A stretch of DNA of 64,000 bases from the NCBI GenBank assembly GCA_977017645.1, contig OZ360228.1, positions 97,278,001 through 97,342,000 of the forward strand, written 5' to 3'. Below the pieces are notes generated by a model. It was not told where the DNA came from, ran no database searches, and saw only the letters and a program-made list of their open reading frames with translations. Numbering within the stretch: the first letter of the stretch is position 1; each line of letters begins with the position of its first letter. Positions 8,083 through 41,221 of the stretch are shown here, one piece after another. The translations under genes were made by a program, and so were the position numbers. This stretch comes from Torpedo marmorata (taxonomy: Eukaryota).

Positions 8083-8939
8083 TGTTATGGACCATGACTG
8101 ACCATTTGGACTGCGGACGGTCAGCAGGAAGGATGAAGTCTTTTGGAGTACACACTGGGACCAGGTACTGAAAGAGTTAACTTGCCCAGGACGGGGTGTA
8201 CTCAGAGAGAGACACACAGAGAGAGAGACAGGCTGTGGAAAGATACTTTGTTGCACTTTTGCAAAAGCAGGTGAAATATTCTGCAAAAAGCATTTAGTCT
8301 GGAGTTGCAAGAGGCTGGAACAACACAGCCAAATCCAGGCTTGTGCATCCCAGGGGAAAAGGCACATGGCCTCCTGTATCAGCAAAATCCTGAGTCAAAA
8401 CAACTTTCGTGGAGAACAGGCATGAGATCAGCGAGACCGGCTGTGAGATCCAAGTATACGCCTCAATCAAACTGATTTGGAATCGCAATCCTCGTGTATC
8501 TACCAAAAGGGAAAGTCATCAGAGAAGTAAAGCAGGCCAAGCATTCGTAAGCTTAAACAGTCATTGTCTCCCTCTCTCCAACGTTCATTAAGAAGTCCTT
8601 CGTGCCAGCTGAATTTGGACCCTGAACATAGAGTGATTTTTGTGGACTGTATTTTTAGGACTGACTTATTTTTATGACTGGCCTGGGGGTTTTGGGGAAG
8701 GTTTTCCATTTTTACATCAGGGTTGGGCACAGACTGTAATGGTCTGGGCTTTACACATTTACACACACACACTTACACACACACACACACACTCTTTAGA
8801 TACCAATAGTGTTTATAGTCATTTATAGTGGGGTTAATTGTTAAGAAATTATATGTTTAATTGTCTTTAATAAATATAAATCTCAATTTTACCACTTTTG
8901 CATTGCGTCTTCTCTCATTGCTGGTTTGAGTTTGTAACA
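8083..8939 (+). repeat. 5' LTR of Gypsy A (857 bp)
   Basis: TGTTA/TAACA ends, (CA)n tract, AATAAA near 8868; near-identical to the other LTRs in the window. Confidence 0.93.
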
Positions 8940-8942
8940 AAT

Positions 8943-8960: not shown

Positions 8961-9437
8961 TTGAATCAAGATCCAGTTTGGTAATTGAAGGAATCCCAGT
9001 CTGATTTAAGACATTCCTTTTGTAAAGCTAATTAAAAGCTGTGTGTGTGTAACAAAAAACCAGCAACAATGGATGTAGAATTTTTTTTGGAATTACCTGA
9101 TCCTGATACTTTAAAAAAGGCTAAAAAGGAACAGTTAGTGGCTATAGCAACAGAGTTGGGCATTGCTTCAGTAAAATCATCTATGAAAAAGTTGGAGATT
9201 GGGAGAATAATTGCCAAATATTATATAAAAGGGAAAAAGTTTGAGGAGAGCGTGTTAGAGCAGTTTCCCAAGGGTAAACCTTTTGAAAACATAGAGTTGG
9301 AACTAAAGAAATTGGAATTGGAACAAAAGTTTAGACTTGGAGACAGCCAGGGAACAAGAGATTAGACTTAAAAAACACAAATTCTGGAGAAACTCAGCAG
9401 GTCAAACAGTGTCTTTTATGTAGCAAAGGTAGAAATA

Positions 9438-9478
9438 CATAACCGACGTTTCGGGCTTGAGCCCTTCATCAAAGTATG
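9438..9478 (-). ncRNA. Minimal type I hammerhead ribozyme motif (Penelope pLTR)
   Basis: cauacu-UUGAUGA-a-GGGC-ucaa-GCCC-GAAA-C-GUC-gguuaug. Confidence 0.75.
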
Positions 9479-11847
9479 AGAAAATGCCGGCAGGCGTCCG
9501 AACAAAAGAGTGAGGGGGGAAGGGGCGTGGCAAAGGCAGGAGATGATAGGTGGAGAAAGGAGGGAGGGGACAGCTGCAAAGAGGGGGAGGAGGGATGGCT
9601 AGGTAGGAGGAGAAAAACAAGAAGGACAGGTGAGGGGGGAGGGGAAGGGAACGACAAGCAGGTTTAGTGGAAAGCAGAAAAGTCAATGTTAATGCCATCT
9701 GGCTGGAGAGTGCCGAGACGGAAAATGAGATGTTGTTCCTCCAATTTGCGGGTAGTCTGGGTGGGATAGTACATAAGGCCATGGACAGACATGTGAGTGT
9801 GGGAGTGTGACCCAGAATTGAAATGGTTGGCTACTGGGAGGTCGCTGTTGTTGCGGACGGAGAGGAGGTGCTCAGCAAAGCGATCTCCCAATCTACGACC
9901 GGTCTCTCCGATGAAGAGAAAGCCACAAAGGGAGCACCGGATGCAGTAAATAAGTTCTCTGGATGTACAAGTGAAGTGTAGTTTCACTTGGAAGGCCTGT
10001 TTGGGGCCCTGGACCGTGGTGAGGGGGGAGGTGTGGGCGCAGGTGTTGCACCTCCTGCGGGCACAGGGGAAGGTGCCGGGGGTGCGATGGGTGGTGAGGG
10101 ATGAGTGCACGAGTGAATCGCGGAGGGAGCGGTCCCTACGGAAGGCCGAGAGGGGAGGAGAAGGAAAAATGTGTCTGGTGGTGGGATCCTGTAGTAAGTG
10201 CCAGAAATTCTGGCAGATAATGTGTTGGATGCGGAGGCTGGTGGGGTGGTAGGTGAGGATGAGGAGGATTCTATGTTTGTTGCGTCAGGGGGCCAGGGCA
10301 GATGAGCGGGAAATGGAGGAGATGCGGGTGAGGGCTGAGTTGATGGTGGTGGAGGGGAAGCCACGTTTGTGGAAAAAGGCAGACATTTCAGAAGATCTGG
10401 AGTGGAACACCTCATCTTGGGAACAGATGCGGCGGAGGCGGAGAAATTGAGAGAAGGGAATGGAGTCCTTGCAGGGGACAGGGAGTGAGGAAGTGTAGTC
10501 TAGATAGTTGTGGGAGTTGGAGGGTTTGTAGTAAATGTTGGTGGAAAGCTTGTCTCCCGAAATGGAGACAGAGAGATCCAGGAAGGGGAGAGTGTTATCA
10601 GAGATGGACCAGGTGAGTTTGAGATCGTGGTGGGTCGGATGCGAATTGGATGAAGTTGACAAGCTCATTGCGGGTGCATGAGGCAGCCCCGATGTAGTCG
10701 TCGATATAACGGAGGAAGAGATGAGGGGTCTTGCCTGTGTAGGCTTGCAGCATGGATTGCTCCACAAAGCCCACAAACAGGCAGGCGTAGCTGGGACCCA
10801 TGCGGGTACCCATGGCTACTCCTTTGATTTGGAGGAAGTGGGATGAGTTGAAGGAGAAGTTATTGAGAGTGAGGACAAGTTCTGCCAGGCGGAGGAGGGT
10901 GGTGGTAGAGGGTGACTGGTCGGGTCTTTGGTCCAGGAAGAAGCGAAGTGCTTTCAGACCTTCTGTGTGGGGGATAGAGGTATAAAGGGATTGGACATCC
11001 ATGGTGAAGATGATGCGGTCCGGTTCAGGGAATCTGAAGTCATTGAGGAGATGAAGGGCATGTGAGGTGTCGCGGATGTAGGTGGGGAGGGATTGGACCA
11101 GGGGAGAAAAGATGGAGTCAAGGTAAGATGAAACTAGTTCGGTGAATTTTTCACATTTTTCCTTCTCCTCCCCTCTCGGCCTTCCGTAGGGACCGCTCCC
11201 TCCGCGATTCACTCGTGCACTCATTCCTCCCCACCCATCGCACCCCCGACATCTTCCCCTGTGCCCGCAGGAGGTGCAACACCTGCGCCCACACCTCCCC
11301 CCTCACTACGATCCAAGGCCCCAAACAGGCCTTCCAAGTGAAACTACACTTCACTTGTACATCCAGAGAACTTATTTACTGCATCCGGTGCTCCCTTTGT
11401 GGCTTTCTCTACATCGGAGAGACCGGTCGTAGATCGGGAGACTGCTTTGCTGAGCACCTCCTCTCCGTCCACAACAACTGTGACCTCCCAGTAGCCAGCC
11501 ATTTCAATTCTGGGTCACACTCCCACACTCACATGTCTGTCCATGGCCTCATGTACTATCCCACCCAGACTACCCGCAAATTGGAGGAACAACATCTCAT
11601 TTTCCGTCTCGGCACTCTCCTGCCAGATGGCATTAACATTGACTTTTCTGCTTTCCACTAAACCTGCTTGTCGTTCCCTTCCCCTCCCCCCTCACCTGTC
11701 CTTCCTGTTTTTCTCCACCTACCTAGCCATTCCTCCTCCCCCTCTTTGCTGCTGTCCCCTCCCTCCTTTCTCCACCTATCATCTCCTGTCTTTGCCACGC
11801 CCCTTCCCCCCCTCTCTCTTTTGTTCGGACGCCTGCCGGCATTTTCT

Positions 11848-11888
11848 CATACTTTGATGAAGGGCTCAAGCCCGAAACGTCGGTTATG
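11848..11888 (+). ncRNA. Minimal type I hammerhead ribozyme motif (Penelope pLTR)
   Basis: catactttgatgaagggctcaagcccgaaacgtcggttatg. Confidence 0.75.
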
Positions 11889-12562
11889 TATTTCTACCTT
11901 TGCTACATAAAAGACACTGTTTGACCTGCTGAGTTTCTCCAGCATTTGTGTTTTTTACTTCAACCACGGTGTCTACAGATTTTCATGTTTTACAAGAGAT
12001 TAGACTTGGAGGTAGCCAGGGAACAAAAGAAATTAGACAGGGAATTGGAACAAAAGAGATTAGACTTAGAGAGAGAGGAGAACATTAGGCAAAATGAACT
12101 GGAAAAGATTAAGTTGGAAAATGAGAGGAGACAAAAAGAGCACCAAGATCAAATTCGTGGTCCTGTTGAGAGGTTTTTGGCCAGTAGAGAAGTTAGGTTG
12201 GTTCCTCCATTTGAGGAGACGGAAATAGATAAGTACTTCCAGCATTTTGAGAAGGTGGCTGTGAAATTAAAATGGCCACAAGACCAATGGTCTCTTATGT
12301 TACAAAGTGTAATTAAAGGAAAAGCTCAGCAAGCTTATTCTACTCTTACCACGGAGCAAGCTGCTGATTATGAAATGGTGAAAAAGGCTATACTCCAGAC
12401 TTATGAGTTAGTTCCAGAGGCTTATAGACAGAAGTTTAGAAATTTAAAAAGATCAGCAACCCAATCTTACACAGAGTTTGCCTATGAAAAGGTTGTGTGT
12501 TTTGACCAGTGGTGCACATCTAAGGCGGTAAACAATGATTACAATCAATTGAGAGAATTGAT

Positions 12563-15500
12563 GGGGGACATCACGTGATGGCGTTGGGGTAGGATGTAGA
12601 AACCTGACCCTCCTGGGAATTGTTAAAAAAGTACCGAATAAAAAACGTTTTAAAAAATTTAAACCTTTTTAAAAAGTATCTAAATACTGGGAAAACAGTA
12701 CAAGTGCCTTTAAAAAAAGATAAATCAGCCGCAGCCTTACCTAAAGCTCCACGCAAGGAGAAGACCTGAACGGGAAGAAGGCCTCAACAGCAGGGAGCCA
12801 GCGTACAAACTGATCCCCAGGAGGATGAACCGCTGGCAGGGACCTCTGCATGCGCTACATACCTCCAACAACGGGAACATGGCGATGAGGAAAAAACCGG
12901 AAGTGGAACGCGCATGCGCGAAACGCCGGAGCTCTCAGCTGAGTCTGAAGCATCGGGAGGAGAAGAGACAGACCATTCTGATTCCGATGGTGAAGAAGAG
13001 GAGGTGGAAATTGAAGATCAACAGCAACAAGAAGAGGAAATACAAAAAGATGTGGAAGCAAAAGGTAAAGAAACAAGAAATCCAGACGTTAATAATATTA
13101 AAGGAGTTTAAAAAAATTAAGGCTGAAATTAAAGACATTAACAAAGTGGTGAAAGAGATAAAAGGAATAAGGATAAAATTGGATAAGATTGATGGAAAAG
13201 TCAAGAAAGTACAAGATGATATTGAACTTATTGATGACAGAATGGAAAAACTGGAAAATAATATTACAGCTCTAACTATGGAAAATCAGAAGCTTCAACA
13301 GAAAGTAGATATACTGGAGAATTTTAGCAGAAGAAATAATATAAAAATAGTGGGTCTCAAAGAAGAAATAGAAGATCAAGATATGATTGCTTTTATTAAA
13401 AGGTGGATACCTGAAGTTTTGGGTCAAGATAACTTTGATCAACCAATTGAAATTGAAAGAGTACATAGGGCTCTAAGAGGGAAACCACTACAAGACCAAA
13501 CCCACGTTCTGTTTTAATTAAATTTCTTCGCTGCCAAGATAGAGAGAAGGTTCTGAAGCTGGCGATGGAACAAGCAAGAAAAAGACCTGGCCCTTTGATG
13601 CATGAAGGTGCTGGAATTCTATTTTATCCTGATATAAGTGCTGACTTAATGAAGAGAAGGAAAGATTTTAATCCAGCTAAAAAGATCCTCTGGGAGAAGG
13701 GTTACAGATTTGTATTGCAACATCCAGTGACTTTGAAAATCTTTTTGCCTGAACAACCAAGCAGATTCTTTACAAGTTATGTATCGGCAGAGGATTTTGC
13801 TAAAGAACTTCCACAGGTCCAGAGGGAATGAAGAAAAATTAAAATATGAACTGTTATAACTACGTTTCATAAGGGCTATATTATCTGCATCTGTTTGTAA
13901 GCTTGATTAATTTAATAACTGATTACTTTAAAAAAAATATATAAAAAATTATATACCAGGGGGGTTGGGGAGGAGGGTGAGGTTCTGACTACTACTGGAT
14001 CATGTGTAATTTTGCGACCTTGGTCGTGAACCGTAAAATGGAGAGGGGTAGCGCTGTATATTTAAACAGCGCTAGAGGGGAAGAATTTATTTTGTTTTAT
14101 TACTGTGAAAGTGGGAAATTGTATTCTTTAACTTTATACCTATTCTTTTCTATTTGTGTGGATTGCCGGGGGAGTCATGTGTCGACACGATGGAGATCAG
14201 AGACTGAAGTAAAAGGGAGAGGGTTAGCGATCTGGGTTGGAAGAGGTAACACTAAAAAGAATGAATATGGCTATTTAAAATGAGTAACATAGTGAAATTT
14301 ATGAATTTTAATATTAATGGGATAAATGGACCAATTAAGAGGAAAAGAGTATTAGCATATATTTAAAAATTAGGTACAGACGTGGCTTTTTTTACAAGAG
14401 ACACATTTAACAGAAAAAGAACATTTGAAACTAAAAAGAGACTGGGTGGGATATGTAGCAGCTTCTTCATTTAATTCTAAGGCAAGAGGTGTGGCAATCT
14501 TCATAAAAAAGAATCTTCCAATTAAAATTCAAAATGTTGTGATGGATCCTGTAGGGAGATATGTAATGATACATTGCCAAATATATTCGGAATTTTGGAC
14601 TTTTTTGAATATATATGCTCCTAATGTGGATGATGATAAATTTATTCAAGAAACTTTTCTTAATATAGCAGAGGCACACAAAAATATTATAATAGGAGGA
14701 GACTTCAACTTTTGATTAGATCCAGTCTTAGAGAGATCTACAAGAGGAGTGAAAAGAACTAAGGCAGAAAAAGCTACGCTGGTATTAATGAAAGATTTAA
14801 ATTTAATAGATGCCTGGAGAAGAATCCATCCAAGGGAAAAAGATTATTCATTTTACTCGAGTAGACATGATTCTTATTCTAGAATTGATTTATTTTTAGT
14901 TTCAGCACAATTGCAAGATAGAATATTAGAAGCAGAATATAAAGCAAGGATTTTGTCTGACCATTCACCTTTATTAATGACAATTGCCATACCTGATAAA
15001 GAAAAATCGTTATATAGATGGAGACTGAATCCATTATTATTAAAAAGAACAGAATTTTGTGACTTTATAAGGAGGCAAATCCAGATATTTTGTGAAACGA
15101 ATTTAAACTCCGTGATTGATAAATTTGTAATATGGGAAACTTTGAAAGCATATCTAAGAGGTCAAATTATGTTATACTTCAAAAATTAAAAAGGAATATA
15201 TGAGAGAAATAGACCAATTAGAAACAGAAATAACGATTTTAGAAAAGGATTTACAAAAGAAGTTCTGAAGATAAGCGTAGACAACTAACTAATAAAAAAT
15301 GTCAATATAATGTATTACAGACTTATAGAATGGAGAAGACTATTATAAGAACTAAGCAGAGATATTATGAATTAGGTGAACGATCACATAAATACTCATG
15401 GCAATTAAAAACAGAACGGGCGTCAAGAACAATTAATGCAATTAAAAGTGATTCTAATGTTATTAGTTATAAGCCCCAAAAAAATAAATGACTCTTTCAA

Positions 15501-18458
15501 ATTTTTTTATTCTAAATTATACAAAACTGAGTCTTTGCAAGACGATAGTAAAATTGATGGATATTTATTATAGATAAATCTACCGATTAAATATGCAAGA
15601 ACAGCTAGAATTGAGTACCCAGCTTACACAGAAAGAAGTGAAAGATGCAATGAGCTCATTACAAAGCAACAAAGCTCCGGGAGAAGATAGTTTTCCACCA
15701 GAGTTTTATAAAGAGTTTAAAGAACTATTAATTCCTGTCTTTATGGATATGTTACAACAGTCATCAGTAACTCATACCCTCCCGGAATCTTTTTCAACAG
15801 CAATAATTACAGTAATACCAAAGAAAGATAGAGATCTATTGAAACCCTCGTCCTATAGACCAATTTCATTATTAAATGCAGATTATAAAATTGTAGTTAA
15901 AATTTTGGCTAATATGATAACTAAATTATTACCTAAATTAGTAAACATGGATCAGACAGGTTTTAAAAAAAAAGACAAGCAGCTGACAATGTAGCAAGAT
16001 TACTTAGTATTATTCATCTAGCTCAAAAAAGGAAAGTATTAAGTGTTGCGGTGGCTTTAGATGCAGAAAAAGCATTTGATAGATTGGAGTGGGATTTTTT
16101 GTTTAAAGTATTGGAGAAATTTGGAGTTGGACAGACCTTTATAAACTGGATTAAAGCATTATATAATGCTTCAAAAGCTAAAGTAGTGACTAATGGACAA
16201 ATATCAACTCCGTTCTGTTTGACAAGGTCTAGTAGACAAGGATGCCCATTGTCTCCAGCTTTATTTATATTAGCTATAGAACCACTTGCAGAGGCAATTA
16301 GAAGTGACTCGGAAATCAAGGGATTTAGAGTTGGCCAAGAACAACATAAAATTAGTCTATTTGCGGATGATGTTTTAATATATTTGACAGAACCTGAGAC
16401 CTCTTAACAAAGATTACATTTTAAATTGGAAGAATATGGAAAAATCTCAGGTTATAAGATAAATTGGGACAAAAGTGAAATTATGCCCCTTACAGAAGGA
16501 GACTATACTTCATGTAAAATAAATACTCAGTTTAAGTGGCCACATAATGGGATAAAATATTTAGGAATTTGAACAGAGAATAATTAAAAAAATTTACACG
16601 AACTGAATTATTTACCATTACTTAAAAAGGTTAAAGAAGATTTGGAAAAATGGATGAGTCTACCTATAACATTGATAGGAAGAGTTAATTGTATTAAAAT
16701 GAATATATTTCCAAGAATACAATATTTATATCAAACCATACCTATTTTATTACCACAAAGGTTTTTTTAAGAGTTAAATAAACAAGTGAGAAAATTCCTT
16801 TGGAGAGGTAAATTGTCAAGAGTTTCCATAGAATGTTTAACATAGAAATATGAGTTAGGAGGTTTACAGCTCCCTAACTTTAAAAATTATTACCGAGTGA
16901 CACAATGAGATTTCTTACTACTTTTTTGAAAGTGAGGAAAAACCTGCATGGGTTAAAATAGAATTAGGAAAAATAGGAGAGAGAGTAGCAGAAGAATTTA
17001 TATATAAATGGAACTCAAAATTATTAGTAGGAGTTAAAGAAACACCATTATTGAAAAACTTGATCAAAGCCTGGAACAAGATTAATGATGAGATAGGGAC
17101 AAAAGGGACTATATCTCCTAAAACGCAGATACAGAACAATCTTCTACCTTTTATAAAAGATCATCAACTTTTAAATATATGGTTACAGAAAGGAATTAAG
17201 AAGATAGAATATTGTTATGAAGGAGGTCAACTGATTTCGTTTGTACAATTAAGAAATAAATATGGAATACCGAATAATACTCTTTTTTGTTATTTTAAAT
17301 TAAGAGGATATTTAAGGGAAAAACTAGGTTCAGACATGTTGTTACAAAATTGTAGTGAAGTGGAAACTCTTATTAGGAAAGGAAATACTAGAAAATTTAC
17401 TTCTATAATATACTCTGTTACAAAGAGGAGCTTTCAAACAAGGACTTCATAAATCTAGACAGAGATGGGAACAAGATCTTAATGTGACAATTGATGAAAA
17501 AAGATGGTCGGATTTATGTCAAGATAGCATGACCAATACTATTAATGTAAGATATAGATTAGTTCAGTATAACTTTTTACACCAATTATATCTTACACCG
17601 CAAAAGTTGAATAAAATGAAATCTGCATTATCAAATAAGTGTTTTAGATGTGGTGAAGATGTGGGAACTTTTTTACGTTCTACTTGGTCATGCTCTAAGG
17701 TAAGACCCTTCTGGATGGAATTAGGGAATTTGTTAAAGCAAATCACTGGTATTACACTCCCACAAAACCCTGATTTATTTTTATTAGGGAATGTTGAAGG
17801 AACTAGACCAAAATTGAAGTTATAATATATCAATTGAAATTTGTTAAAATTGATCTAGCGGTAGCGAGGAAGTGTATAGCAATAACTTGGAAATCAGATA
17901 CAAGTTAGGTATGGAAAGATGGAATACAGAAATACAGAGTTGGATTCCATTGTAAAATATAACATATAATATGAGAAATAAATATGGGGTATTTTTGCAA
18001 ATTTGGCGTCCATATATCCAGACATTAGGTATAAATATTTAAATGTGTTATTCAAAATCCTAGACCTTATGCTAGCTCTCTCAAATTTAAATTTAAATAA
18101 TAAAAACGCTGTTGAAAACCTTGCGTCGAACTGTGGATTCCGGGGCGATCCATATAGATGTCTTTTATAAGTAATATTATGTTACTTTTGTTTTTTCTTT
18201 TTCCTTCTTTCTTTTGTATATTTTAGGAAGGGGAGGGAATTTAAGGGGACGGAATGGGTCGAGGGTGGGATTAGAAATACTAAGCAAAAATTTTAATTTA
18301 AACTGTTGAAAAATGTTATAAGGATTTGGGAGGATAAGGGAAGGGGTAGTATACACTGTAATGAAATATTATAAAAGATTTTTTGAAGTTAATAATCTAT
18401 ACTATTCTTGTATGTATTACTGTGTAAAAATTTAAAATAAAATAGTCAACAAAAAAAA
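12563..18458 (+). mobile_element. Full-length (about 5.9 kb) decayed L1-clade LINE inserted in the Gypsy A gag
   Basis: GGGGG start; ORF1 (LENFSRRNNIKIVGL, IERVHR, FYPDIS) about 12700-13831; ORF2 from ATG 14280 to about 18042 with EN, RT (FADD) and CCHC region, disrupted; AATAAA 18436; poly(A); TSD aattgagagaattg at 12547-12560 and 18457-18470. Confidence 0.93.
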
Positions 18459-20926
18459 TTGAGAGAATTGTTACTAATTGAGGAGATAAAAAAGGTGTGT
18501 TCCTGAGGATATTAAGGCATACATAGATGAAAAGGAGGTGCAACCGTGGCAAACATCAGCTAAATTAGCAGATGAATATGCTTTCACCCACAAGCCTAAG
18601 TGGACGTCAGGCAGAATTTTCCAAAAGGGCACTGTCGATAATCCCAAGCAAGTGGAAAGTAAATTTGGAAGTGGTGTTAAGGAAAGAGATGAAGGAAAGT
18701 GGAAAAGGGAAAACCCTTCGGGTCCCATTTGCCACTACTGTAGGAAGGCTGGTCATATGCTAGCAAGCTGTCCAAGTGTTGAAAAAGAAGAGAGAAAAGG
18801 ATGCAACACTAATGCTTGTATTCAGAGTGAGAAGAGGCATAACACCCAGGAAGGAGACAAATGTACTTACAAAGTTAGGGATGTATTTAAACCTTTTGTG
18901 ACTGATGGTTTTGTTTCAGTTAAGGCAGGATCAAAGCAAGTTCCAGTGAAAATCTTGCGAGATACTGGAGCTGCTCACTCACTTGTGTTAGATAATGTCT
19001 TGGAATTTTGTGAAGCCACTGACAACGGTGAAATGAATTTAATTAAAGGAATTGGGGGTGATGTTGAGTCCATTCCTTTGCACAAAATAGTGTTGAACTC
19101 AGACTTGGTGGAAGGACCTGTTATAATAGGAGTGAGATCAGAGTTGCCAGTAGAAGGAGTCTCACTGTTGCTAGGCAATGACTTGGCTGAGGGTAAAGTA
19201 GTTCCTGCAGTGCGAATGACCACTAAGCCAGTCATTGATAAGTCAGAGAAGGACTCTGATACTTATCTGACATGTGCCATAACCAGGGCCATGTCTAAGA
19301 AAAATGTCACTGTTGAGAAGGCAGTGGAAAATAAATTGGTGAAAGAAAAGGTCGATGATAATCAAAAACACCTGGAAAAGTTTGAAAAATTTCCTGTGTT
19401 AGACACATACACTAATAAGACACCTAAAGGCACAGATTTGTCACTATCCCGACAGGAGCTAATAGCAAGGCAAAAGTAGGATCCTGATCTTGCTGAGGTG
19501 AGGGATAAGGTTCATTCTGAAGAGGAGATTAAGAAGGTGCCAGTGGGTTATTATGAACAAGATGGGGAGTTGATGAGAAAGTGGAGACCATGTGATGTTA
19601 CCTGCCAGTGAAGAATGGGCAGTAGTGCAGCAGGTTGTGATCCCTAAAGTATATAGGTCCTTTAAGGTTATTAAAAGAACAGTGGACTAATAGTGATGTG
19701 CATTTAAATCTGTTAGATTATATTTCCAAATTTAAGGATCAATTGCATAAAGCGTGTGAGATGGCAAAGGAGACTTTAAAGGCCACTCAACACAGAATGA
19801 AGGTTTGGTATGATCGAAAGGCCAAGATGAGAACTTTCAAACCTGGTGAGAACGTATTAGTTCTGTTTCCCACACATTCAAATCCTCTTAGGGCTAGATT
19901 TTCAGGACCCTATAGAGTTAAATCAAAAATTAATGAGGTCACCTATGTTATAGAAACACCTAATCACAGATGAGACACACAGGTCTGTCATGTGAATATG
20001 ATTAAGCCATATTTTGAACAGGTGCCGCACAAAGAGACTGAACATTTACCAGAGGTGCTAGTTATCGACCGGGGTAAAGAGGAGACAGATAAAACCAGTT
20101 TCAGAGAGGGTCATGGGACTGTTATTTATCCGGGTTATCTAGTAGGACAGGGGCAGGTGGCGCCAGTAGAGGCAAAGGTTGTGACTATTTCCGAGTTCCC
20201 TGTTCCAACTGGTAAGAAAACTCTGAGGAGATTCCTGGGAATGATTGGCTACTACCGCAAGTTCTGTAAATACTTTGCAGATCTTGCACTCCCTCTCACA
20301 AATTTGCTTAGAAAGGGAGAAAAATTTGTATGGTCGACAGGTTGTCAGGAAGCATTTGTCAAATTGAAAGCCATTTTATGCCACCAACCTGTGCTTGTCA
20401 CCTGATTTAGAACAGCCATTTTCTTTAGCCGTGGATGCCAGCGATGAAGCTGTAGGCGTGGTGTTGTTACAGAGGGAGAATGAAGAGGACATTGACCATC
20501 CGGTATTCTACTTCTCAAAGAAGTTCAATGATCATCAAAGGAATTATTCAACCATAGAAAAAGAGTTGTTAGCTCTTGTGTTGGCTCTACAACACTTTGA
20601 TGTGTATATCTGTACAGCTCAAAAACCACACATAGTGTACACTGACCATACTCCATTGGTTTTTCTTTGTAAAATGAAAAATAAGAATCGACGGTTGTTG
20701 AATTGGAGTCTAATTTTGCAAGAATATGATTTAATAATAACACATATAAAACGGAAAGATAATGTAATCACTGATTGTTTTTCTGGATGCTAAACTTTAT
20801 AAATGAAAATAATTCATATTTTTGTGTTTGTGGATGAACATTGTGGGTTTTCTTTATATTGTGACATGTCAATTAATTTCCAAAATTTTGTTCTTGCAGA
20901 CCAAATTGTTCTTTGTGGGTGGGAGG

Positions 20927-21291
20927 TGTTATGGACCATGACTGACCATTTGGACTACGGACGGTCAGCAGGAAGGATGAAGTCTTTTGGAGTACACACT
21001 GGGATCAGGTACTGAAAGAGTTAACTTGCCCAGGACACAGAGAGAGAGACAGGCTGTGGAAAGATACTTTGTTGCACTTTTGCAAAAGCAGGTGAAAAAT
21101 TCTGCAAAAAGCATTCAGTCTGGAGTTGCAAGAGGCTGGAACAACACAGCCATATCCAGGCTTGTGCATCCCAGGGGAAATGGCTGGGAGAATAGCACAT
21201 GGCCTCCTGTATCAGCAAAATCCTGAGTAAAAACAACTTTCGTGGAGAACAGGCGTGAGATCAGCGAGACAGGCTATGAGATCCAAGTATA
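20927..21291 (+). repeat. Truncated 3' LTR of Gypsy A
   Basis: TGTTATGGACC after the polypurine tract; similarity to the 5' LTR stops at about 21291. Confidence 0.9.
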
Positions 21292-21292
21292 C

Positions 21293-22340
21293 ATAAATTT
21301 CAAATGTATCAAGTACAGAATACATTATGCCCCTTAACCCTCCCTTCCCCACCCAAAAAAAATAAAACCAAGACAGAAGAGAAAGAAAAAGAAAAAGAAA
21401 AGGAAACTAAACGTACCTCAGGGGTTTGATTACAACTGAGCACCAATGTGCTCCAAGTACGGTTGCCACACTTTAACAAAGTTATTATATTTATTTCTAA
21501 GACTATATGTATTTTTTTCCATGGGGATACAGCTGTACATTTCTGTAGACGATCGAGTGATGAGATGGGGTGAGTCGGACTTCCAAATAACTGCAATGCA
21601 TTTTTTTGCTAAGGACAGAGCAACTTTTACAAATTGAATTTGGAATTTAGATAATCTGTTGCTTATGTCCATGTGGTTTCCTAAGATAAAACTCCGGGTC
21701 TAGTGGAAAGGCTACTCCCTTAATCCTAGTTAGTACGTTAGCTAAATCATGCCAAAAGGGCCTTACCTTTGCACATGACCAGGTAGAGTGTAAAAAGGAT
21801 CCAATTTCTATCCCACACCTGAAACACAGTTCTGATATCTCTGGTTTTGACTTGTGTAGTTTTTGTGGTGTGAGATACAATTGGTGTAGGAAATTATATT
21901 GAACCAGATTATATCTGGCATTAATGACTGCTGTCATGCTATCCAAACACCAGTCTGACCAGCATCGTTCGTGAATTGTTGTTCCCAAGTCCGACTCCCA
22001 CCTCTCTCTCGATCTTTGTAGGCCCGGCTTAGGGCTTTCGCTTTGGAGTACGAAATACATTCTAGATATGAATTTAGGTGCATTTCCTAATCGATGCAAC
22101 TTTTCCATTTCATTACACCTAGGTGAGGTCATTGTAGGACCCCATCTATCCCTCAAGAAGGACCTCAGTTGAAGAAAACAGTAGACGGTTCCATTAGACA
22201 AATCATATTTACTCTTCAATTACTCAAAAGACATAAGTTTTCCTTTCTTGTACCAGTCTTCAATATATCGGAGTCCCTTCTGGTGCCAAATGTTTAAAAT
22301 TTTGTTACCCAAAGCCATGGGTATAGTTTCGTTTTGGATC
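21293..22340 (-). mobile_element. L1-clade LINE 3' fragment
   Basis: QYNFLHQLYLTP, CFRC...HSTWSC and AKKCIAVIWK motifs. Confidence 0.88.
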
Positions 22341-22633
22341 AAAGGTGATTTTTCTGGATAATTGTGATACAAAATGCATTTCTCTTTCACAAAATTACAA
22401 TGTTCACCACAGGGATTAGATTGGAAAAATTGTAAATGATATAATTGGGCTGCCTTAAATTATCTATTGATGAAATATTGTGTGGCATGATTCCAAAACA
22501 GAAAAATGTCATTTATGTCAGGTCCATTACCTGTCAGAGACAGCATGTCTGAGTCAGTAGGTACAATCTTCAGCTCACCACTCTCAGGAAAGTGCAGACC
22601 CACATTTACATTTTACAGGGGATCCAATGTATA

Positions 22634-28044: not shown

Positions 28045-29349
28045 TTACTGCAGTCGGCGATAACTTGCACAAAGTTCATGGTCCCTAATATCTCCCCACC
28101 CTCCATTTTTCACATGTGGAGTGATTGCACCCATTGGAAATACTTTGCTTATTGTCATTGTTCCTGGAAATAAATGCTGTAAATTACTACTTATAATTCT
28201 GTCTATTTTAGAAATTTCAACAGTTGGTGTGCAAGTTTTCTTGTGATGCATACCACAATCACCAGCATGGAAAATCCGAGGAGCTTCACAAACCATAACT
28301 TTCCAATATCGAGGCAAACAGGATACTGTTAAGTGCTGCAATGTCCAGTCCCAGTTATAGTCGTCATATTTGCAGAAAGTATCAGTGCACTCTATCAGTT
28401 TCTGATATGTCTCTCTCGTCATAGCCATGCCCATGTTATGCTCTGTTGATCGCCAGGTTTTCACTTCAACTTTATTTGTTTTATCTCCAAAATCACTTAC
28501 ACGCACATATGTACCAAGGGACAATATGTCACAGTCAGGACAATTTTCAGTCTTCAAACTCCACATATTTTTCAGGACATGATAAAAATCAGGAGACAAA
28601 TAGTGGTCTTCTTCAACGAAAAGCACTAAACCCTTATGATCTTCCAAAACCTTTACTTTCTCCCAAACAAAATGCAACTTCCACCACCAGTGGTGTTTGG
28701 TCTGGCAGAATTTGGACTCCCTGTAATGGCCAAACGAATCTGGATATTCTGCATTAATACAGCCCAATTTGAAAGCATCTGTCTTGCTTATATCACGTGG
28801 ACAGTCTTTAGGATCGTGCCCTGGGAATTCGTTGGGATACAACTGGACACTGAACGGGAAAAATACTTGTAGTACTTGACAAAAATCGATGCTGGCCACG
28901 ATGTGGTTGATTTGTGGAGACCAGAAGTCGTGGCTGAATATTAACAAGACGTTTTCTATTCCTTTGGCTTTTCTGAGCGAGTTCACGAGTAACTGCAGGT
29001 AATCCGGCCTGTTGTGCACTTGGATGACCACCACCACGTCGTCTGGAGGACGTGTCCTTATGCTCTCCGCGTTTCTGACAACCTGATCAAAATTGAGCTG
29101 GTACACGACCCCTCGGTAGACCAACGTCAGGTTGTCCACCTCCGGCCTTTCCAACGTGCCGCCCAGAGATTCGTTGGAAGCTTTCCTGCTCACCTTCCCG
29201 TCGCCTTCTCGCAGCAGTCGCGACGTCTCGGCGTCCCTCGGAAACGCCTCGGCTTTCCTCTGCTTGCCGCCCGTCCAGAAGCCAAAGGCGGCCACCAGCA
29301 CGATGAGCGCCAGCAGCAAGACTTTCTTCTTGTAGATGCGGAACCTCAT
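28045..29349 (-). CDS. MGAT2: Alpha-1,6-mannosyl-glycoprotein 2-beta-N-acetylglucosaminyltransferase (GlcNAc-T II), 434 aa, uninterrupted CDS
   Basis: N-terminus MRFRIYKKKVL plus TM anchor; QVHNRPDYL, CINAEYPDSFGHYRE, QTKHHWWWK, EEDHY, YDDYNWDW, NGGWGDIRDHELC, YRRLQ*. Confidence 0.97.
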   Translation of the reverse strand: MRFRIYKKKVLLLALIVLVAAFGFWTGGKQRKAEAFPRDAETSRLLREGDGKVSRKASNESLGGTLERPEVDNLTLVYRGVVYQLNFDQVVRNAESIRTRPPDDVVVVIQVHNRPDYLQLLVNSLRKAKGIENVLLIFSHDFWSPQINHIVASIDFCQVLQVFFPFSVQLYPNEFPGHDPKDCPRDISKTDAFKLGCINAEYPDSFGHYRESKFCQTKHHWWWKLHFVWEKVKVLEDHKGLVLFVEEDHYLSPDFYHVLKNMWSLKTENCPDCDILSLGTYVRVSDFGDKTNKVEVKTWRSTEHNMGMAMTRETYQKLIECTDTFCKYDDYNWDWTLQHLTVSCLPRYWKVMVCEAPRIFHAGDCGMHHKKTCTPTVEISKIDRIISSNLQHLFPGTMTISKVFPMGAITPHVKNGGWGDIRDHELCASYRRLQ

Positions 29350-29399
29350 GTTAGCTGGCAAGGGAAACAGCGCCTTTTTATATTTCCCCCACTGAAACA

Positions 29400-29950
29400 G
29401 ACCAAAAACAACCAGGGTCAGAGAGACTCGGCGGTCAGGGCAGCCGGAAGCTTCCGATTCGTAAAGGCACCGCCGCGCTCCGGAGCATTTCCAACCGGCG
29501 CAGCCGGGCCAAGGGCAGGCGGCCGCCGGCACTCCCACCCGCTCGGACCCCGAGACGCCAACACACGGCCCAGCAACGCGGCGGCCGATGTCCGTTGCCG
29601 GGAGGGCAGGGCCCTCCCTTCAGCGGGCCTCGCCTCGCCTCACATCCACACCAAGGCCACCACTGTGCCCGCGACCGCTCCGCATCCGCACCTCGCGCCT
29701 GCCTGCCGACCTCCGCTCACCCCTGGAGACCACCTACCCCGCTTTCCCCACCGCCAGTTCCCTCTCTGCGCTGATTGGTGCGCAGCCGTACACAAGGCCA
29801 ATCCCGATTGAACAGCTCAACTGTCACTCATCGGGATTTTGATTGCCCGCTGGTCGTCGCACCTCGAATCACAAGGTCGCGAGCTGATGACGTGACGTGG
29901 ACTCTCCTTGGCAGCAATGTTGTCGATGTCGTTCCTTTACGGTGTGAATA
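29400..29950 (-). promoter_or_regulatory. MGAT2 CpG-island promoter/5'UTR with CCAAT boxes (29774-29778, 29798-29802) and TGACGTG motifs (29888-29900)
   Basis: CpG-rich unique sequence directly upstream of the ATG; motifs read from the sequence. Confidence 0.75.
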
Positions 29951-31116: not shown

Positions 31117-34100
31117 TGTTACAAATTCAAACCAGCAACGACAGAAGACGCAATGTAAAAGGGGTAAAATTGAAATTTATATTTATTAAATACAATTAAA
31201 CATATAATTTCACAACAATTAACCCCACTATAAACAATATTCTTATCTAAAGAATGTGTGTGTGTAAAGCCCAGACCATTACAATCTGTGCCCACCCCTC
31301 CTGTAAAAATGGAAAACCTTTCCCAAAATCCCCAGGTCAGTCATAAAAACCAAGTCAGTCCCAAAAATACAGTCCACAAAAATCACTCTCTATGTTCAGG
31401 GTCCAAATTCAGCTCTGTGCGCTGGCATGAAGGACTTCTTAATGAACGTTGGAGAGAGAAACAATGACAAAGCTTACAAATGCTTGGCCTGATTTTCTTC
31501 CCTGATGACTTTCCCTTTGGGTAGGTACATGAGGATTGCAATTCCAGATCTGATTGAGGCGTATACTTGGATCTCACAGCCCGTCTCGCTGATCTCACGC
31601 CTGTTCTCCACGAACATTGCTTTTTCTCAGGATTTTGCTGATACAGGAGGCCATGTGCTATTCTCCCAGTCTTTTCCCCTGGAATGCACAAGCCTGGATT
31701 TGGTGTCGTTGCTTCAGCCTCTTGCAACTCAAAACTGAATGCTTTTTGCAGAGTTTTGCACCTGCTTTTGCAAATATGCAACAAAGTATCTTTCCACAGC
31801 CTGTGTCTCTCTCTCTCTCTCTCTGTGCACAACCAGTCCTGGGCAAGTTAACTCTTTCAGTACCTGGTCCCAGTGTATACTCCAAAAGACTTCATCCTTC
31901 CTGCTGACCGTCCGCAGTCCAAATGGTCAGTCATGGTCAATAACACCTCCCAACCACAAAGAAAATTTTGGTTTGCACGAACAAAATTTTGGAAGTTAAT
32001 TGAGGTGTCACAATATAAACAAAACCCACAATGTTCATCCACAAACATAAAATATGAACTATTTTCATTTATAAAGTTTAGCATGTAGAAAAACAATCAG
32101 CGATTACATTATATTTCCCTTTTATATGTGCTATTATTGAATCATATTCTTGCAAAATTAGACTCCAATTCAACAACAGTCGATACTTATTTTTCATTTT
32201 ACAAAGAAAAACCAATGGATTATGGTCAGTATACACTATGAGTGGTTTTTGAGCTATACAGATAAACACAAAGTGTTGTAGAGCCAACACAAGAGCTAAC
32301 AACTCTGTTTCTATGGTTGAATAATTCCTTTGATGATCATTGAACTTCTTTGAGAAGTAGGATACCGGATGGTCAATGTCCTCTTCATTCTTCCTCTGTA
32401 ACAGCACCGCACCCACAGCTTCATCACTGGCATCCACGGCTAAAGAAAATGGCTTTTCTAAATCAGGTGACAAGCACAGGTTGATGGCAGAAAATGGCTT
32501 TCAATTTGACAAATGCTTCCTGACAACGTGTCGACCATACAAATGTTTCTCCCTTTCTAAGCAAATTTGTGAGAGGGAGCAAAGTTTTTACAGAACTTGC
32601 GGTAGTAGCCAATCATTCCCAGGAACCTCCTCAGAGTTTTCTTACCAGTTGGAACAGGGAACTCGGAAATAGTCACAACCATTGCCTCTACTGGCGTCAA
32701 CTGCCCCTGTCCTACTACATAACCCAGATAATTAACAGTCCCATGACCCTCTCTGAAACTGGTTTTATCTGTCTCATCCTTACCCCGGTCGATAACCAGC
32801 GCCTCTGGCAAGTGTTCAGTCTCTTTGTGCGGCACCTACTCAAAATATGGCTTAATCATATTTACATGACAGACCTGTGTGTCTCGTCTGCGATTAGGTG
32901 TTTCTATGACATAGGTGACCTCATTAATTTTTGACTTAACTCTATAGGGTCCTGAAAATCAAGCCCCAAGAGGATTTGAATGTGTGGGAAACAGAACTAA
33001 TATGTTGTCACCAGGTTTAAAAGTCTCACCTTGGCCTTTCGATCATACCAAACCTTCATTCTCTGTTGAGTGGCCTTTAAAGTCTCCTTTGCCATCTTGC
33101 AAGCTTTATGCAACCGATCCTTAAATTTGGAAACATAATCTAAGATTTAAATGCACATCACTATTAATCCACTAAAAAACACAAATGCTGGAGAAACTCA
33201 GCAGGTCAAACAGTGTCTTTTATGTAGCAAAGGTAGAATTACATAACCGATGTTTCGAGCTTGAGCCCTTCATCAAAGTATGAGTTTTTTTACTTCAACC
33301 ACGGTGTCTACAGATTTTCATGTTTTACTATTAATTCACTGTTCTTTTAATAACCTTAAATGACCTCTCACCTCGTGTCCAAAAACTAACTCGAATGGAC
33401 TAAAACCAAGTGATTCTTGGACAGACTCCCTCGCTGCAAATAACAACAAATGAATCCCCTCATTCCAATCCTTTTCCTTCTCACAACAATAGGTTCTAAT
33501 CATGTTTTTCAAAGTTGAATGGAACCTCTCCAAGGCCACTTGACTTTCTGGATGGTACACAGAGGATACAATCTGTTTAACTCCCAGTCTATCAACCACT
33601 TGTTGGAAAACGCCTGACATGAAATTACGACCCTGATCTGATTGAATTTTCCTTGGCAAACCTACCAAGATGAAAAACTTTACCATAGCCTTTACAATTG
33701 CTTTTGCTTTAATGTTTTTCAGAGGAATGGCCTCTGGAAATCTAGTGGCTGCACACATAATTGTTAACAAATACTCATTCCTTGCTTTGGTTTTTGGCAA
33801 TGGGCCAGCACAGTCCACAATCACTCTCGAGAAAGGCTCAGTGAAAGCAGGGATAGGTTGCAAGGGTGCCACCGGGGGACTCTGATTAGGTTTACCCACC
33901 TGACAAGTGTGACAGGCCCTGCAAAAGCTTACAACCTCCCTTCTCAAACTGGGCCAATAAAATCTTTTCATTATTTTCGGTATAGTTTTCTTCACCACAA
34001 GGTGACCACCTAAGGGTGTGCTATGAGCCAAAGTTATTATTGCATCCCTATATACTTTAGGGATCACTACCTGCTGCACTACTGCCCATTCTTCACTGGC

Positions 34101-37032
34101 AGGAACATCACATGGTCTCCACTTTCTCATCAACACCCCATCTTGTTCATAATAACCCACTGGCACCTTCTTAATCTCCTCTTCAGAGAGAACCTTATCC
34201 CTCACCTCAGCAAGATCAGGATCCTCCTTTTGCCTTGCTATTAGCTCCTGTCGGGATAGTGACAAATCTGTGCCTTTAGGTGTCTTATCAGTGTATGGGT
34301 GTAACACAGGAGATTACTCAACCTTTTACAGGTGTTTTTGATTATCACCAACATTTTCTTTCACCAATTTATTTTCCACTGCCTTCTCAACAGTAACATT
34401 TTTGTTAGACATGGCCCTGGTTATGGCACGTGCTGGATAAATATCAGAGTCCTTCTCTGACTTATTAATGACTGGCTTAGTGGTCATTCGCACTGCAGGA
34501 ATTACTTTACCCTCAGCCACATCATTGCCTAGCAACAATGAGACTCCTACTGGCAACTCTGATCTCACTCCTATTATAACAGGTCCTTTCACCAAGGCGG
34601 AGTCCAACACTATTTTGTGCAAAGGAATGGACTCAACATCACCCCCAATTCCTTTAATTAAATTCATTTCACCGGTGTCAGTGGCTTCACAAAATTCCAA
34701 TACACTATCTAACACAAGTGACTGAGCAGCTCCAGTATCTCGCAAGATTTTCACTGGAACTTGCTTTGATCCTGCCTTAACTGAAACAAAACCATCACTC
34801 AAAAGGTTTAAATACATCCTTTACTTTGTCAGCAAATTTGTCTCCTTCCTGGGTGTTATGCCTCTTCTCACTCTGAATACAAGCATTAGGTGTTGCATCC
34901 TTTTCTCTTCTTTTTCAACACTGGACAGCTTGCGAGCATATGACCAGCCTTCCTACAGTAGTGGCAAATGGGACCAGAAGGGTTTTCTTTTTTCCCACTT
35001 CCCTTCATCTCTTTCTTTAACACCACTTCCAAATTTACTTTCCATTTGTTTGGGATTATCCACAGTGACCTTTTGGAAAATTCTGCCTGACGTCCTCTTA
35101 GGCTTGTGGGCTAAAGCATATTCATCTGCTAACTTAGCTGAATTTTGCCAAGTTTTCACCACCTTTTCATCTAAGTATGCCTTAATATCCTCAGGAACAC
35201 CTTTTTATCTCCTCAATATTATCAATTCTCTCAATTGATTGTAATCATTGTTTACCGCCTTAGATGTGCACCACCGGTCAAAACACACAACCTTTTCATA
35301 GGCAAACTCTGTGTAAGATTGGGTTGCTGATCTTTTTAAATTTCTAAACCTGTCTATAAGCTTCTGGAACTAACTTATAAGCCTGGAGTATAGCCTTTTT
35401 CACCGTTTCATAATCAGCAGCTTGCTCCGTGGTAAGAGTACAATAAGCTTGCTGAGCTTTTCCTTTTATTACACTTTGTAACATAAGAGACCATTGGTTT
35501 TGAGGCCATTTTAATTTCACAGCCACCTTCTCAAAATGCTGGAAGTACTTATTTATGTCCGCCTCCTCAAAGAGAGGAACCAACCTAACTTCTCTACTGG
35601 CCAAAAACATCTCAACACCTTGTCTTCTCATTTTCCAACTTAATCTTTTCCAGCTCATGTTGCATAATGTTCTCCGCTCTCTTTAAGTCTAATCTCTTTT
35701 GTTCTCTGGCTGCCTCCAAGTCTAATCTTTTTTGTTCCAATTCCATGTCTAATTTCTTTTGTTCCCTGGCTACCTCGAAGTCTAATCTCTTTTGTTCCAA
35801 TTCCTTTAGTTCCAACTGTAGATTTTCAGAAGTGTTACCCTTGGGAAACTGCTCTCACACACTCTCCTCAAACCTTTTCCCTTTTATATAGTACTTGGCA
35901 ATTTTTATCCCAATCTCTGCCTTTTTCATTGATGGTTTTACAGAAGCAATGCCCAACTCTGTTGCTATAGCCACTAACTGCTAATTTTTAGCCTTTTTTA
36001 AAGTATCAGGTTCAGGTGATTCCAAAAAATTTTCTACATCCATTGTTGCTGGTTTATTGTTACACACACACTCGCTTTTAATTAGCTTTACAAAAGGAAT
36101 GTCTTAAACCAGACTGGGATTCCTTCAATTGCCAAGATGGATCTTAATTCAAATCCCAGGACGAGCCCCCAATTTGTTACAAACTCAAACCAGCAACGAC
36201 AGAAGACGCAATGCAAAAGGGGTAAAATTGAAATTTATTAAAGACAATTAAACATATTATTTCTTACCAATTAACCCCACTATAAATGTCTATAAGCACT
36301 ATTCTTATCTAAAGAGAGTGTGTGTGTGTGTAAAAAGCCCAGACCATTACAGTCTGTGCCCAACCCTCATGTAAAAATGGAAAACCTTCCCCAAAACCCC
36401 AGTTCAGTCATAAAAATAAGTCAGTCCCAAAAATACAGTCCACAAAAATCACTCTCTATGTTCAGGGTCCAAATTCAGCTCTGTGTACTGGCACGAAGGA
36501 CTTCTTAATGAACGTTGGAGAGAGAGACAATAACTGTTTAAGCTTACGAATGCTTGGCCTGCTTTTCTTCTCTGACGACTTTCCCTTTTGGTGGGTGCAC
36601 GAGGATTGCGATTCCAAATCAGTTTTGGATTGAGGCGTATACTTGGATCTCACAGCCAGTCTTGCTGATCTCACGCCTGTTCTCCACGAAAGTTGATTTA
36701 AATCAGGATTTTGCTGATACAGGAGGCCATGTGCTATTCTCCCAGCCTTTTCCCCTGGGATGCACAAGCCTGGATTTTGCTGCGTTCTCCAGCTTTTGCA
36801 ACTCCAAACAATTGAATCTGAATGCTTTTTGCAGAGGTTTGCACCTGCTTTTGCAAAAGTGCAACAAAGTATCTTTCCACAGCCTGTCTCACTCTCGGTC
36901 TCTCTCTCACTGAGTACACCCCGTCCTGGGCAAGTTAACTCTTTCAGTACCTGGTCCCAGTGTGTACTCCAAAAGACTTCTTCCTTCCTGCTGACTGTCC
37001 GCAGTCCAAATGGTCAGTCATGGTCCATGACA
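31117..37032 (-). mobile_element. Gmr1-type Gypsy LTR retrotransposon B (gag-PR-IN-partial RT-RH)
   Basis: LTRs at 31117-31946 and 36176-37032; tRNA-Pro PBS about 36155-36172; integrase ORF 33336-34307 (HHCC and D,D-E) upstream of the RT thumb/RNase H at 32078-32750. Confidence 0.93.
33174..33326. mobile_element. Miniature inverted Penelope terminus with a decayed hammerhead (33242-33282, -)
   Basis: pLTR end on - fused to the extreme 3' tail on +; TSD actattaat(c/t)cact; interrupts the Gypsy B pol. Confidence 0.8.
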
Positions 37033-37782
37033 AATCTCTTTTGTTCCAATTCCCTGTCTAATTTCTTTTGTTCCAATTCCAATTTCTTTAGTTCCAACTG
37101 TATGTTTTCAGAAGGTTTACCCTTGGGAAACTGCTCTAACACGCTCTCCTCAAACTTTTCCCCTTTTATCTAGTATTTGGCAATTTTTATCCCAATCTCC
37201 ACCTTTTTCATTGATGGTTTTTCAGAAGCAATGCCCAACTCTGTTGCTATAGCCACTAACTGTTCCTTTTTAGTCATTTTGAAAGTATCAGGTTCAGGAG
37301 ATTCCAAAAAAATTTCCACATGCATTGTTACTGGTTTTTTTGTTACACACACAAACTTTTAATTAGCTTTACAAAAGGAATGTCTTAAACCAGACTGGGA
37401 TTCCTTCAATTACCAAGATGGAGCTTGATTCAATCCTAGGACTTGCCCCCAATTTGTTACAAATTCAAACCAGCAACGACAGGAGATGCAATGCAAAAGG
37501 GGTAAAATTGAAATTTATATTTATTAAAGACAATTAAACATATAATTTCTTAACAATTAACCCCACTATAAACATCTATAAACACTATTCTTATCTAAAG
37601 AGTGTGTTGTGTGTAAAGCCCAGACCATTACAGTCTGTGCCCAACCCTCATGTAAAAATGGAAAACTTTCCCCAAAACCCCCAGGTCAGCCATAAAAATA
37701 AGTCAGTCCCAAAAATAGTCCACAAAAATGACTCTCTATATTCAGGGTCCAAATTTAGCTCTGTGCGCTGGCACGAAGGACT
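37033..37782 (-). mobile_element. Partial Gypsy copy C: truncated LTR (from 37456), PBS and gag 5' part, abutting the 5' LTR of B
   Basis: gag start ...VEIFLESPEPDT; PBS about 37435-37452; LTR cut by an L1 poly(A). Confidence 0.85.
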
Positions 37783-38305
37783 TTTTTTTTAAAATTTTTA
37801 ATTTAAAATCACATGATAATTTCAGAAATATCAAAATACATGTGATATATTTTCCCCCTCCCCTCCCCCTCTACTATGAGAAAAAGAATAGTGTGGAAAA
37901 TGTCATTCTAAAGAAACAACTATAGACTAATTTTATTGTGGAGCACAGGTTCACCAGTCAGACCCGATATCAAGAGATCTTCAAATCCTTAAACCCACTG
38001 TTTTTATATATGGGCTCCATACCTTCAAAAAGAAATTATATTTATTACGTAAATTATAAGTAATTTGTTCAAGTGGTATGCATGAACGAAGTTCTGCATG
38101 CCATCTTTCCAACCCTAAATCTACATCCGATTTCCATGTAATAGCAATGCATTTCTTTGAAACGGCTAAAGCAATTCGCAAAAATTCTATTTGGTGCATA
38201 GTTAATCTCAATTTAATACTAATTCTTTTAATATCTCCAAACAAAAATATCATAGGATCCATTGGGAGTGTAAATCTCAATACTTTATCTAAAAACATAA
38301 GGGTG
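37783..38305 (-). mobile_element. L1-clade 3' fragment
   Basis: Poly(T) at 37782-37790; LAVSKKCIAITWKS and FLKVWSPY motifs. Confidence 0.85.
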
Positions 38306-40379: not shown

Positions 40380-41221
40380 TGTTATAAACTCAAACCAGCA
40401 ACGACAGAAGACACAATGCAAAAGGGGTAAAATTGGAATTTATTAAAGACAATTAACCCCACTATAAACGTCTATAAACACTATTCTTATCTAAAGAGTG
40501 TGTGTGTGTGTGTGTGTGTATAAAACCCAGACCATTACAGTCTGTGCCCAACCCTCATGTAAAAATGGAAAACCTTCCCCAAAACCCCCAGGTCAGTCAT
40601 AAAAATAAGTCGGTCCCAAAAATACAGTCCACAAAAATCACTCTCTATATTCAGGGTCCAAATTCAGCTCTGTGCGCTGGCACGAAGGACTTATTAATGA
40701 ACATTGGAGAGAGAGACAATGACTGTTTAAGCTTACGAATGCTTGGCCTGCTTTTCCTCCCTGATGACTTTCCCTTTTGGTAGGTGCACGAGGATTGTTC
40801 TTCCCAAATCAGTGTACCACTGATTGAGGCATGTACTTGGATCTCACAGCCTGTCTCGCTGATCTCACGCCTGTTCTCCACGAAAGTTGCTTTTTCTCAG
40901 GATTTTGCTGATACAGGAGGCCATGTGCTATTCTCCCAGCCTTTCTAGCTGGAATGCACAAGCCTGGATTTGGCTGTGTTGCTCCAGCCTCTTGCAACTC
41001 CAAACTGAATGCTTTTTGCAGAGTTTTGCACCTGCTTTTGCAAAAGTGCAACAAAGTATGTTTCCACAGCCTGTCTCTCTCTCTCTCTCGGTCTCTCTCT
41101 GAGCACACCCAGTCCTGGGCAAGTTAACTCTTTCAGTACCTGGTCCCAGTGTGTACTCCAAAAGACTTCATCCTGCCTGTTGACCGTCCGCAGTCCAAAT
41201 GGTCCGTCATGGTCCATAACA
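40380..41221 (-). mobile_element. Solo LTR of the same Gypsy family (842 bp)
   Basis: TGTTA...TAACA flanked by 4-bp TSD ACAG (40376-40379, 41222-41225). Confidence 0.93.

Follow-up and report, generated by a model that had tools for sequence, protein, structure and literature searches.

Can a retrotransposon lineage that encodes no polymerase spread through a vertebrate genome on reverse transcriptase (RT) supplied in trans? The question is raised by a 64-kb window (the whole stretch of DNA analysed, G000:C40:97278001-97342000) of a 6.2-Gb host genome, in which a preliminary description had read the same RT deletion in two LTR elements and proposed a lineage encoding Gag, protease (PR), integrase (IN), RT thumb and RNase H. 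Both elements are decayed: element A occupies 8083-21292 on the plus strand and element B 37032-31117 on the minus strand. They lie in opposite orientation, as described, and have diverged by ~5%. Catalytic motifs of PR, IN and RNase H are legible in A or B. On PC1, the leading axis of variation in the family, both elements rank with the old copies.

Element A, on the plus strand throughout, starts with a 5' LTR (TGT...ACA, 8083..8938; left flank GTAG) followed by the PBS. Its gag-PR-IN N-terminus (9070..19657) is broken by an inverted Penelope-like pair with a ~16-bp duplication (~9374-11993) and by an L1/Tx1-type LINE (~12563-18456), and ends at a 686-nt deletion of the IN core that is found nowhere else in the genome. 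The C-terminal part of IN and the post-IN linker follow (19658..20119), reaching the RT deletion join and ending in the remaining copy of an imperfect 11-nt repeat (20109..20119). Downstream lie an RT primer-grip/thumb remnant with RNase H (20120..20790; Pfam RT_RNaseH, E=1e-34), interrupted by a 2-nt frameshift near 20397, and the PPT with a partial 3' LTR (20913..21292; the LTR starts at 20927) truncated by a minus-strand L1 fragment. Element B, on the minus strand, runs from its 5' LTR (36175..37032) through a decayed gag-PR-IN-linker region (32749..36043; Pfam Integrase_H2C2 and rve) with a Penelope-like fragment in IN (~33173-33326, ~13-bp duplication), the remaining 11-nt repeat copy (32738..32748), and a thumb remnant with RNase H (32081..32737) that has an 11-nt thumb deletion and the same 2-nt frameshift as A, to its 3' LTR (31117..31945). 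The 5' LTR of B lies directly inside the gag of a third copy (37033..37786, minus strand), which consists of the 3' part of an LTR, a PBS and the gag start; a solo LTR of the same family with the 4-bp TSD CTGT stands at 40380..41221 (minus strand). L1/Tx1-type fragments truncate A at its 3' LTR (21293-22500) and the third copy at its LTR (37787-38273), in addition to the L1 in the gag of A. The window also holds an intact, single-exon host gene, MGAT2 (28048-29619, minus strand; Pfam E=3e-161), with element B ~1.5 kb upstream of it, an LRR1-like host exon (43859-44590, minus strand) and a 53-bp tandem repeat (44854-45665).

Both copies indeed read HVNMIKPY...DKTSFREGHGTV.Y.GY.VGQG in a single frame (GHG at 20109 in A and at 32748-32734, minus strand, in B). 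Compared with full-length Gmr1-like polyproteins, ~250 residues are missing from A and B: neither copy matches the stretch ~945-1196 of P0003, which contains LPFG and YIDD, so the YxDD palm is absent rather than overlooked. The deletion measures exactly 771 nt (257 codons), is in frame and comprises the RT core (fingers and palm with YIDD); the skip is exact in 62/62 deleted copies (60 sampled plus A and B). The position of the join had to be corrected. It had been placed at GHG (about 20108 and 32748), but GHGT is linker sequence, so that the true join lies 11 nt further right, at 20119/20120 in A and 32738/32737 in B. In 30 RT-bearing loci the deleted piece is flanked by the imperfect repeat, 9/11 nt alike, in the form of GGTCATGGGAC (GHGT, linker) and GGACATGCGAC or GGACATGCTAC (GHAT, palm end), and it is the codon alignment of the two repeats that keeps the join in frame. 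A subgenomic form made by splicing was rejected, as the skipped piece ends AC..CT and, whichever strand or register is read, lacks GT-AG ends. None of the other large deletions in 122 copies was present in more than one copy.

The described retention of thumb and RNase H stands as far as the domains are concerned, but the 2-nt deletion between them (~20397 and ~32468) shifts the frame in both A and B, so that neither encodes an IN-thumb-RNase H fusion. We considered this frameshift as a family trait and rejected it: it is rare, with 33 exact copies genome-wide and 0/117 in sampled copies, and 9/10 viewed carriers are RT-bearing. Common to A and B, it may reflect some local exchange between them. 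Rare 2-nt deletions also recur in unrelated copies at TA-containing sites (e.g. TTAAG, CTTAG, CATAG), a possible mutational signature.

Search patterns with the join set before GHG missed the RT-bearing parent because the join lies 11 nt further right: one gave 46 matches, of which 20/20 viewed were junction derivatives, and a second gave 0 matches. A pattern of the linker followed by other bases gave 7 places, one of which (L082) runs on into RT. From the RT of L082 we traced a large RT-bearing form of this family, ~90-94% identical to element B in the flanks and with the same LTR, PBS and PPT. The proposed need for RT in trans is thus supported by the missing RT core together with the existence of this partner. 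The RT-less form is a non-autonomous deletion derivative in that it has lost an essential enzyme, has retrotransposed and has its cis signals in common with an autonomous partner. A sister RT-bearing Gmr1 family, retrieved by RT-protein search, was rejected as parent, being only ~74% identical to B. This sister family is abundant (L051-L080), and an EGH motif occupies the same linker position in L053, L054 and L059.

By domain order (PR-IN-RT-RH), single gag-pol ORF, Pfam matches and similarity to database polyproteins, the family is assigned to Gmr1-type Ty3/gypsy elements, for which IN upstream of RT (PMC8220671) and a single gag-pol ORF (PMC11117352) are described as defining traits. Open frames span 1,200-1,500 codons in sampled copies, IN is 64-73% identical to the best Gmr1-like polyproteins, and RT copies in the genome reach up to 90% identity to a sawfish protein, which makes a cartilaginous fish the probable host. 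Family members have TG...CA LTRs, PBS, PPT and a short TSD. The PBS, just after the 5' LTR (examined in L118-L237), is hypervariable past its first 10 bases, and several PBS variants are common to both classes. In young copies it reads TGGGGGCTCGTCCGGGAT, which we take to match tRNA-Pro. In the same copies, whether deleted or RT-bearing, a charged coiled-coil-like repeat in Gag (codons ~89-114 of the reference frame) varies through in-frame indels of 3-27 nt.

The junction is not confined to this locus. Exact 27-mers across it occur 13,214 times genome-wide, against 5,914 for the RT-bearing form and 0 for a reversed control. To avoid the bias of junction 27-mers, we also anchored a census on IN: the first 100 exact integrase matches on contig C1 comprised 70 deleted, 23 RT-bearing and 7 unclassified copies. 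Of these 100, 46 matched known junction entries (33 deleted and 13 RT-bearing, with three of the assignments made across insertions), while 54 were read anew (37 deleted, 7 unclassified and 10 that retain the core wholly or in part). Genome-wide exact counts of 26,516 for gag and 27,131 for integrase, with exact-match rates in the sample of 73% and 85%, correspond to ~32,000-36,000 internal copies. The deletion allele accounts for about 70-75% of this very large family. For sequence comparison we took the first 60 listed places per class on contig C1 and, for statistics, removed three tandem or duplicate partners, leaving 59 and 58 copies. This sample of ~120 among ~32,000-36,000 copies covers the first 34 Mb of one contig and was picked by exact 27-mer, so that lesions below ~5% frequency escape it.

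These copies inserted independently. Matching, varied 4-bp TSDs bound 25/36 two-LTR deleted copies and 20/29 two-LTR RT-bearing copies. Neither A nor B has a matched TSD: the 3' LTR of A is cut by L1, and B has flanks GATT/ATAT with LTRs 7.9% apart. Median LTR divergence (K2P) is 0.020 in deleted and 0.019 in RT-bearing copies (TSD-only test, p=0.31), and TSD-bearing deleted copies range from 0.3 to 5.5%; the two classes cover an equal span of ages. With distinct TSDs and copies genome-wide, the deletion is older than both insertions in the window and has spread by retrotransposition, as had been proposed. It appears that both forms have long persisted side by side in steady proportion. The RT-less form also occurs in head-to-tail tandem arrays with ~4.9-5.0 kb spacing and LTRs in common (G000:C1 5,291,871-5,301,832, 5,766,284-5,772,143 and 3,948,380-3,953,400; L035-L037), and in L151/L152 one TSD (GTGG) encloses the whole dimer.

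The notion of a distinct RT-less lineage, in contrast, did not hold. More than ~100 nt from the join, deleted and RT-bearing copies are inseparable. Among 385 polymorphic columns, 13 differ by class at p<0.01; 11 of them, and all 10 that pass Bonferroni correction, lie within 55 nt of the join. On FastTree trees of regions beyond 100 nt, the class label changes 30 times in gag-PR, 39 in IN, 40 in the 3' part of IN and 33 in thumb-RH, versus shuffled means of 31, 39, 39 and 36 (of 200 shuffles, 76, 113, 143 and 35 gave no more changes than observed). In the 100-nt stretches next to the join, one on each side, label changes drop to 15 and 6 versus a shuffled 39 (0/200 as low). Distances in IN are the same within and between classes (0.042). 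The deletion shows a mean r2 of 0.011 with 99 common sites beyond 100 nt, versus 0.14-0.23 at all distances among these sites themselves. PC1 (39% of variance) does not separate the classes (p=0.35) but correlates with LTR age in each of them (rho 0.60 and 0.75), so the linkage structure between sites reflects time.

Close to the join, the picture is one of private and age-ordered variation. Haplotypes of deleted copies pass from VIYLGY (oldest) through VNYLGY to VNS(L/R)(S/G)Y (young), none of which occurs in sampled RT-bearing copies. A change at +6 is present in 89/93 deleted versus 0/56 RT-bearing copies, and a second junction-linked base in 80/93 versus 0/56, so that private bases lie on both sides of the join. 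Such haplotypes on a shared backbone point to one deletion that arose once and was repeatedly re-housed before insertion. It behaves as a single deletion allele at about 70-75% in a recombining population.

The identical 771-nt joint is also present in other sequencing runs, scored by presence in contigs, whose depth was not taken as copy number. Run X1 (organism A), from which the assembly may derive, has it in 28 contigs, run X2 (organism B) in 1 contig and run X7 (organism F; tentatively RNA) in 1 contig; it was not seen in 10 contigs examined from run X4 (organism C), at low cover. With one contig each in X2 and X7, this hints that the allele may predate a species split.

We consider it probable that A and B are old, decayed copies of one 771-nt RT-core deletion allele that was copied in shared particles and had its flanks swapped. 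The allele would have originated by a single template jump between the codon-aligned GHGT and GHAT repeats, which would place it in frame automatically. RT-less RNA would then enter particles containing RT from the RT-bearing partner, with RT provided in trans by co-packaging, would often be paired with partner RNA, and would win more than half of the output. Template switching in mixed particles would keep replacing the flanks of the deletion allele. Copy-choice recombination between co-packaged RNAs is a known route (PMC6894440, PMC10924933), and by analogy we extend it to the RT-less/RT-bearing pair. The copying advantage, from a shorter RNA or a biased output of mixed dimers, would be limited by the need for an RT donor, and the outcome could be a frequency-dependent balance resembling that of a defective-interfering genome. 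If, in a toy model, a particle functions only when it contains one or more RT-bearing RNAs, the equilibrium is q = 2k-1, and q = 0.69 requires k ~0.85, an illustration and not a measurement.

Whether the RT-less protein is used is a separate matter, and we hold the chances to be about even that RT-less RNA is translated into a Gag-PR-IN-thumb-RNase H polyprotein of its own, on which it depends in cis. In favour of this, the load of stops and frameshifts at insertion extrapolates to ~0 (intercepts -0.03 and 0.09 per 100 codons, intervals including 0). The frame at the join is given by the codon-aligned repeat and a clean ORF is importable by recombination, so neither demonstrates a cis role; that no other large deletion is multi-copy does count for one, as do the catalytic motifs of PR, IN and RNase H still legible in A or B. 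A proposed N/S check on IN and RNase H yielded a purifying signal that cannot be assigned to the RT-less class: the shared versus singleton N/S ratio of 0.14-0.28 spans Gag core, PR, IN, thumb and RNase H, but on polymorphisms common to both classes, so that it gives the RT-less form no credit.

A somewhat less favoured reading contests only this cis-protein part. It retains the same allele and recombination but makes the protein irrelevant, with the frame a side effect of the codon-aligned repeat and gag, PR, IN and RNase H kept clean only by re-import from RT-bearing copies. In keeping with such passive carriage, class-private shared variants outside the junction are nearly nil (0-2 per region) and singleton N/S is neutral-like in both classes. 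The junction-linked private changes, 13 N : 5 S as scored and ~12:6 given two sites mis-scored by adjacent changes, appear close to neutral, and they abolish the YLG motif. If the protein were irrelevant, however, further deletions should pay, yet all other large ones are single-copy and the exact counts of gag and IN are alike; moreover, the 18 shared junction-linked changes (93 copies) include 0 stops or indels versus ~2.6 expected (P~0.08).

A more ambitious possibility, which we regard as doubtful, is that the RT-less form is a functional, balanced, trans-species deletion polymorphism. The majority form would supply surplus Gag, PR and IN, with the ~3:1 ratio setting particle stoichiometry at the level of the population, or reflecting a segregation-distorter-like equilibrium, instead of plain parasitism. 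Other LTR elements obtain such a surplus via frameshifting or splicing, and the RT-less form is proposed as its source here since the single ORF of Gmr1 yields Gag and RT 1:1.

Three further readings bear on the shared allele itself. That the RT-less copies form a separate non-autonomous subfamily, swapping only LTRs or occasional pieces with its partner, would agree with the single origin and the private junction haplotypes; it is nevertheless most improbable, as label changes beyond 100 nt equal those of shuffles, IN distances do not distinguish the classes, and in this sample the RT-less copies have no clade of their own outside the lesion. Even less credible is a recurrent hot spot, at which every RT-less copy formed anew from an RT-bearing template via the 11-nt repeats, making the flanks alike. 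The repeat does border the deleted piece and the classes are intermixed on the trees, yet the age-ordered private bases on either side of the join, and the weaker GCTAC repeat in most young RT-bearing copies, largely refute this reading. Spread at the DNA level after insertion, by segmental duplication and ectopic gene conversion that would also have homogenised the flanks, has a similarly slight probability despite the tandem arrays and the rare 2-nt deletion common to A and B, given distinct 4-bp TSDs, TG...CA termini and unique insertion sites of most sampled copies, internal haplotypes that track their own LTR age in both classes (and thus mixing before insertion), and only 6 rare alleles common to A and B, no more than in some unlinked pairs (up to 9 and 15).

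These results bear on how defective and autonomous LTR elements coexist, a matter in which simulations of bovine ERVK foresee collapse (PMC10924933). The present family preserves, in tens of thousands of copies that can be dated, a single RT-null allele in an apparently steady majority. The linkage window of this allele is as short as is usual under long-term balancing selection, and species may share it. Frequency-dependent models can be tested directly on such genomic data, and template-switch recombination can be measured in a vertebrate retrotransposon; RT-based censuses would overlook about three quarters of the family.

The elements resemble the Gmr1 clade in having IN upstream of RT, a single gag-pol ORF and a SCAN-like gag match, but their majority form lacks the RT core, and no such form is described in the cited sections of PMC8220671 and PMC11117352. 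A search of open-access literature brought up no account of a Gmr1 family with a deletion allele confined to the RT core. Mouse IAP 1-delta-1 is likewise a partly deleted form that dominates new insertions and needs proteins in trans, and its fusion protein is reported to help in cis (PMC7411935, PMC10924933). IAP 1-delta-1, however, is an ERV whose deletion fuses gag to pol, whereas here Gag, PR and IN are untouched and the RT core alone is gone, recombination is free down to ~55 nt and the ratio is steady over the age range of the family. In the ERVK[2-1-LTR] pair of cattle, defective copies also outnumber competent ones (85:15), recombination is pervasive and biased output from mixed particles has been proposed (PMC10924933). 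The bovine D-type has no intact ORFs and a swapped central segment, unlike the ORF that was intact at insertion here, and the predicted extinction of that family contrasts with a coexistence that looks long-lived. Wheat RLG_Sabrina/WHAM, with RLG_Wilma, are high-copy gypsy elements without RT that may give Gag to a 'cooperative complex' (PMC9744471); they have lost both RT and IN and are separate families, whereas here IN and RNase H are kept within one gene pool. In the Ty1 and ONSEN 'clans', too, defective members recombine with autonomous ones by copy choice while being reverse-transcribed, but the cited part of PMC6894440 describes no long-lived deletion allele that alone holds the majority. 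IAP 1-delta-1, bovine ERVK D-type and wheat Sabrina/WHAM already provide examples of non-autonomous deletion forms more numerous than their helpers. What sets the present family apart is the loss of only the RT core from an otherwise open single ORF, within one gene pool with ~55-nt linkage and at a ratio that looks steady over the sampled ages.
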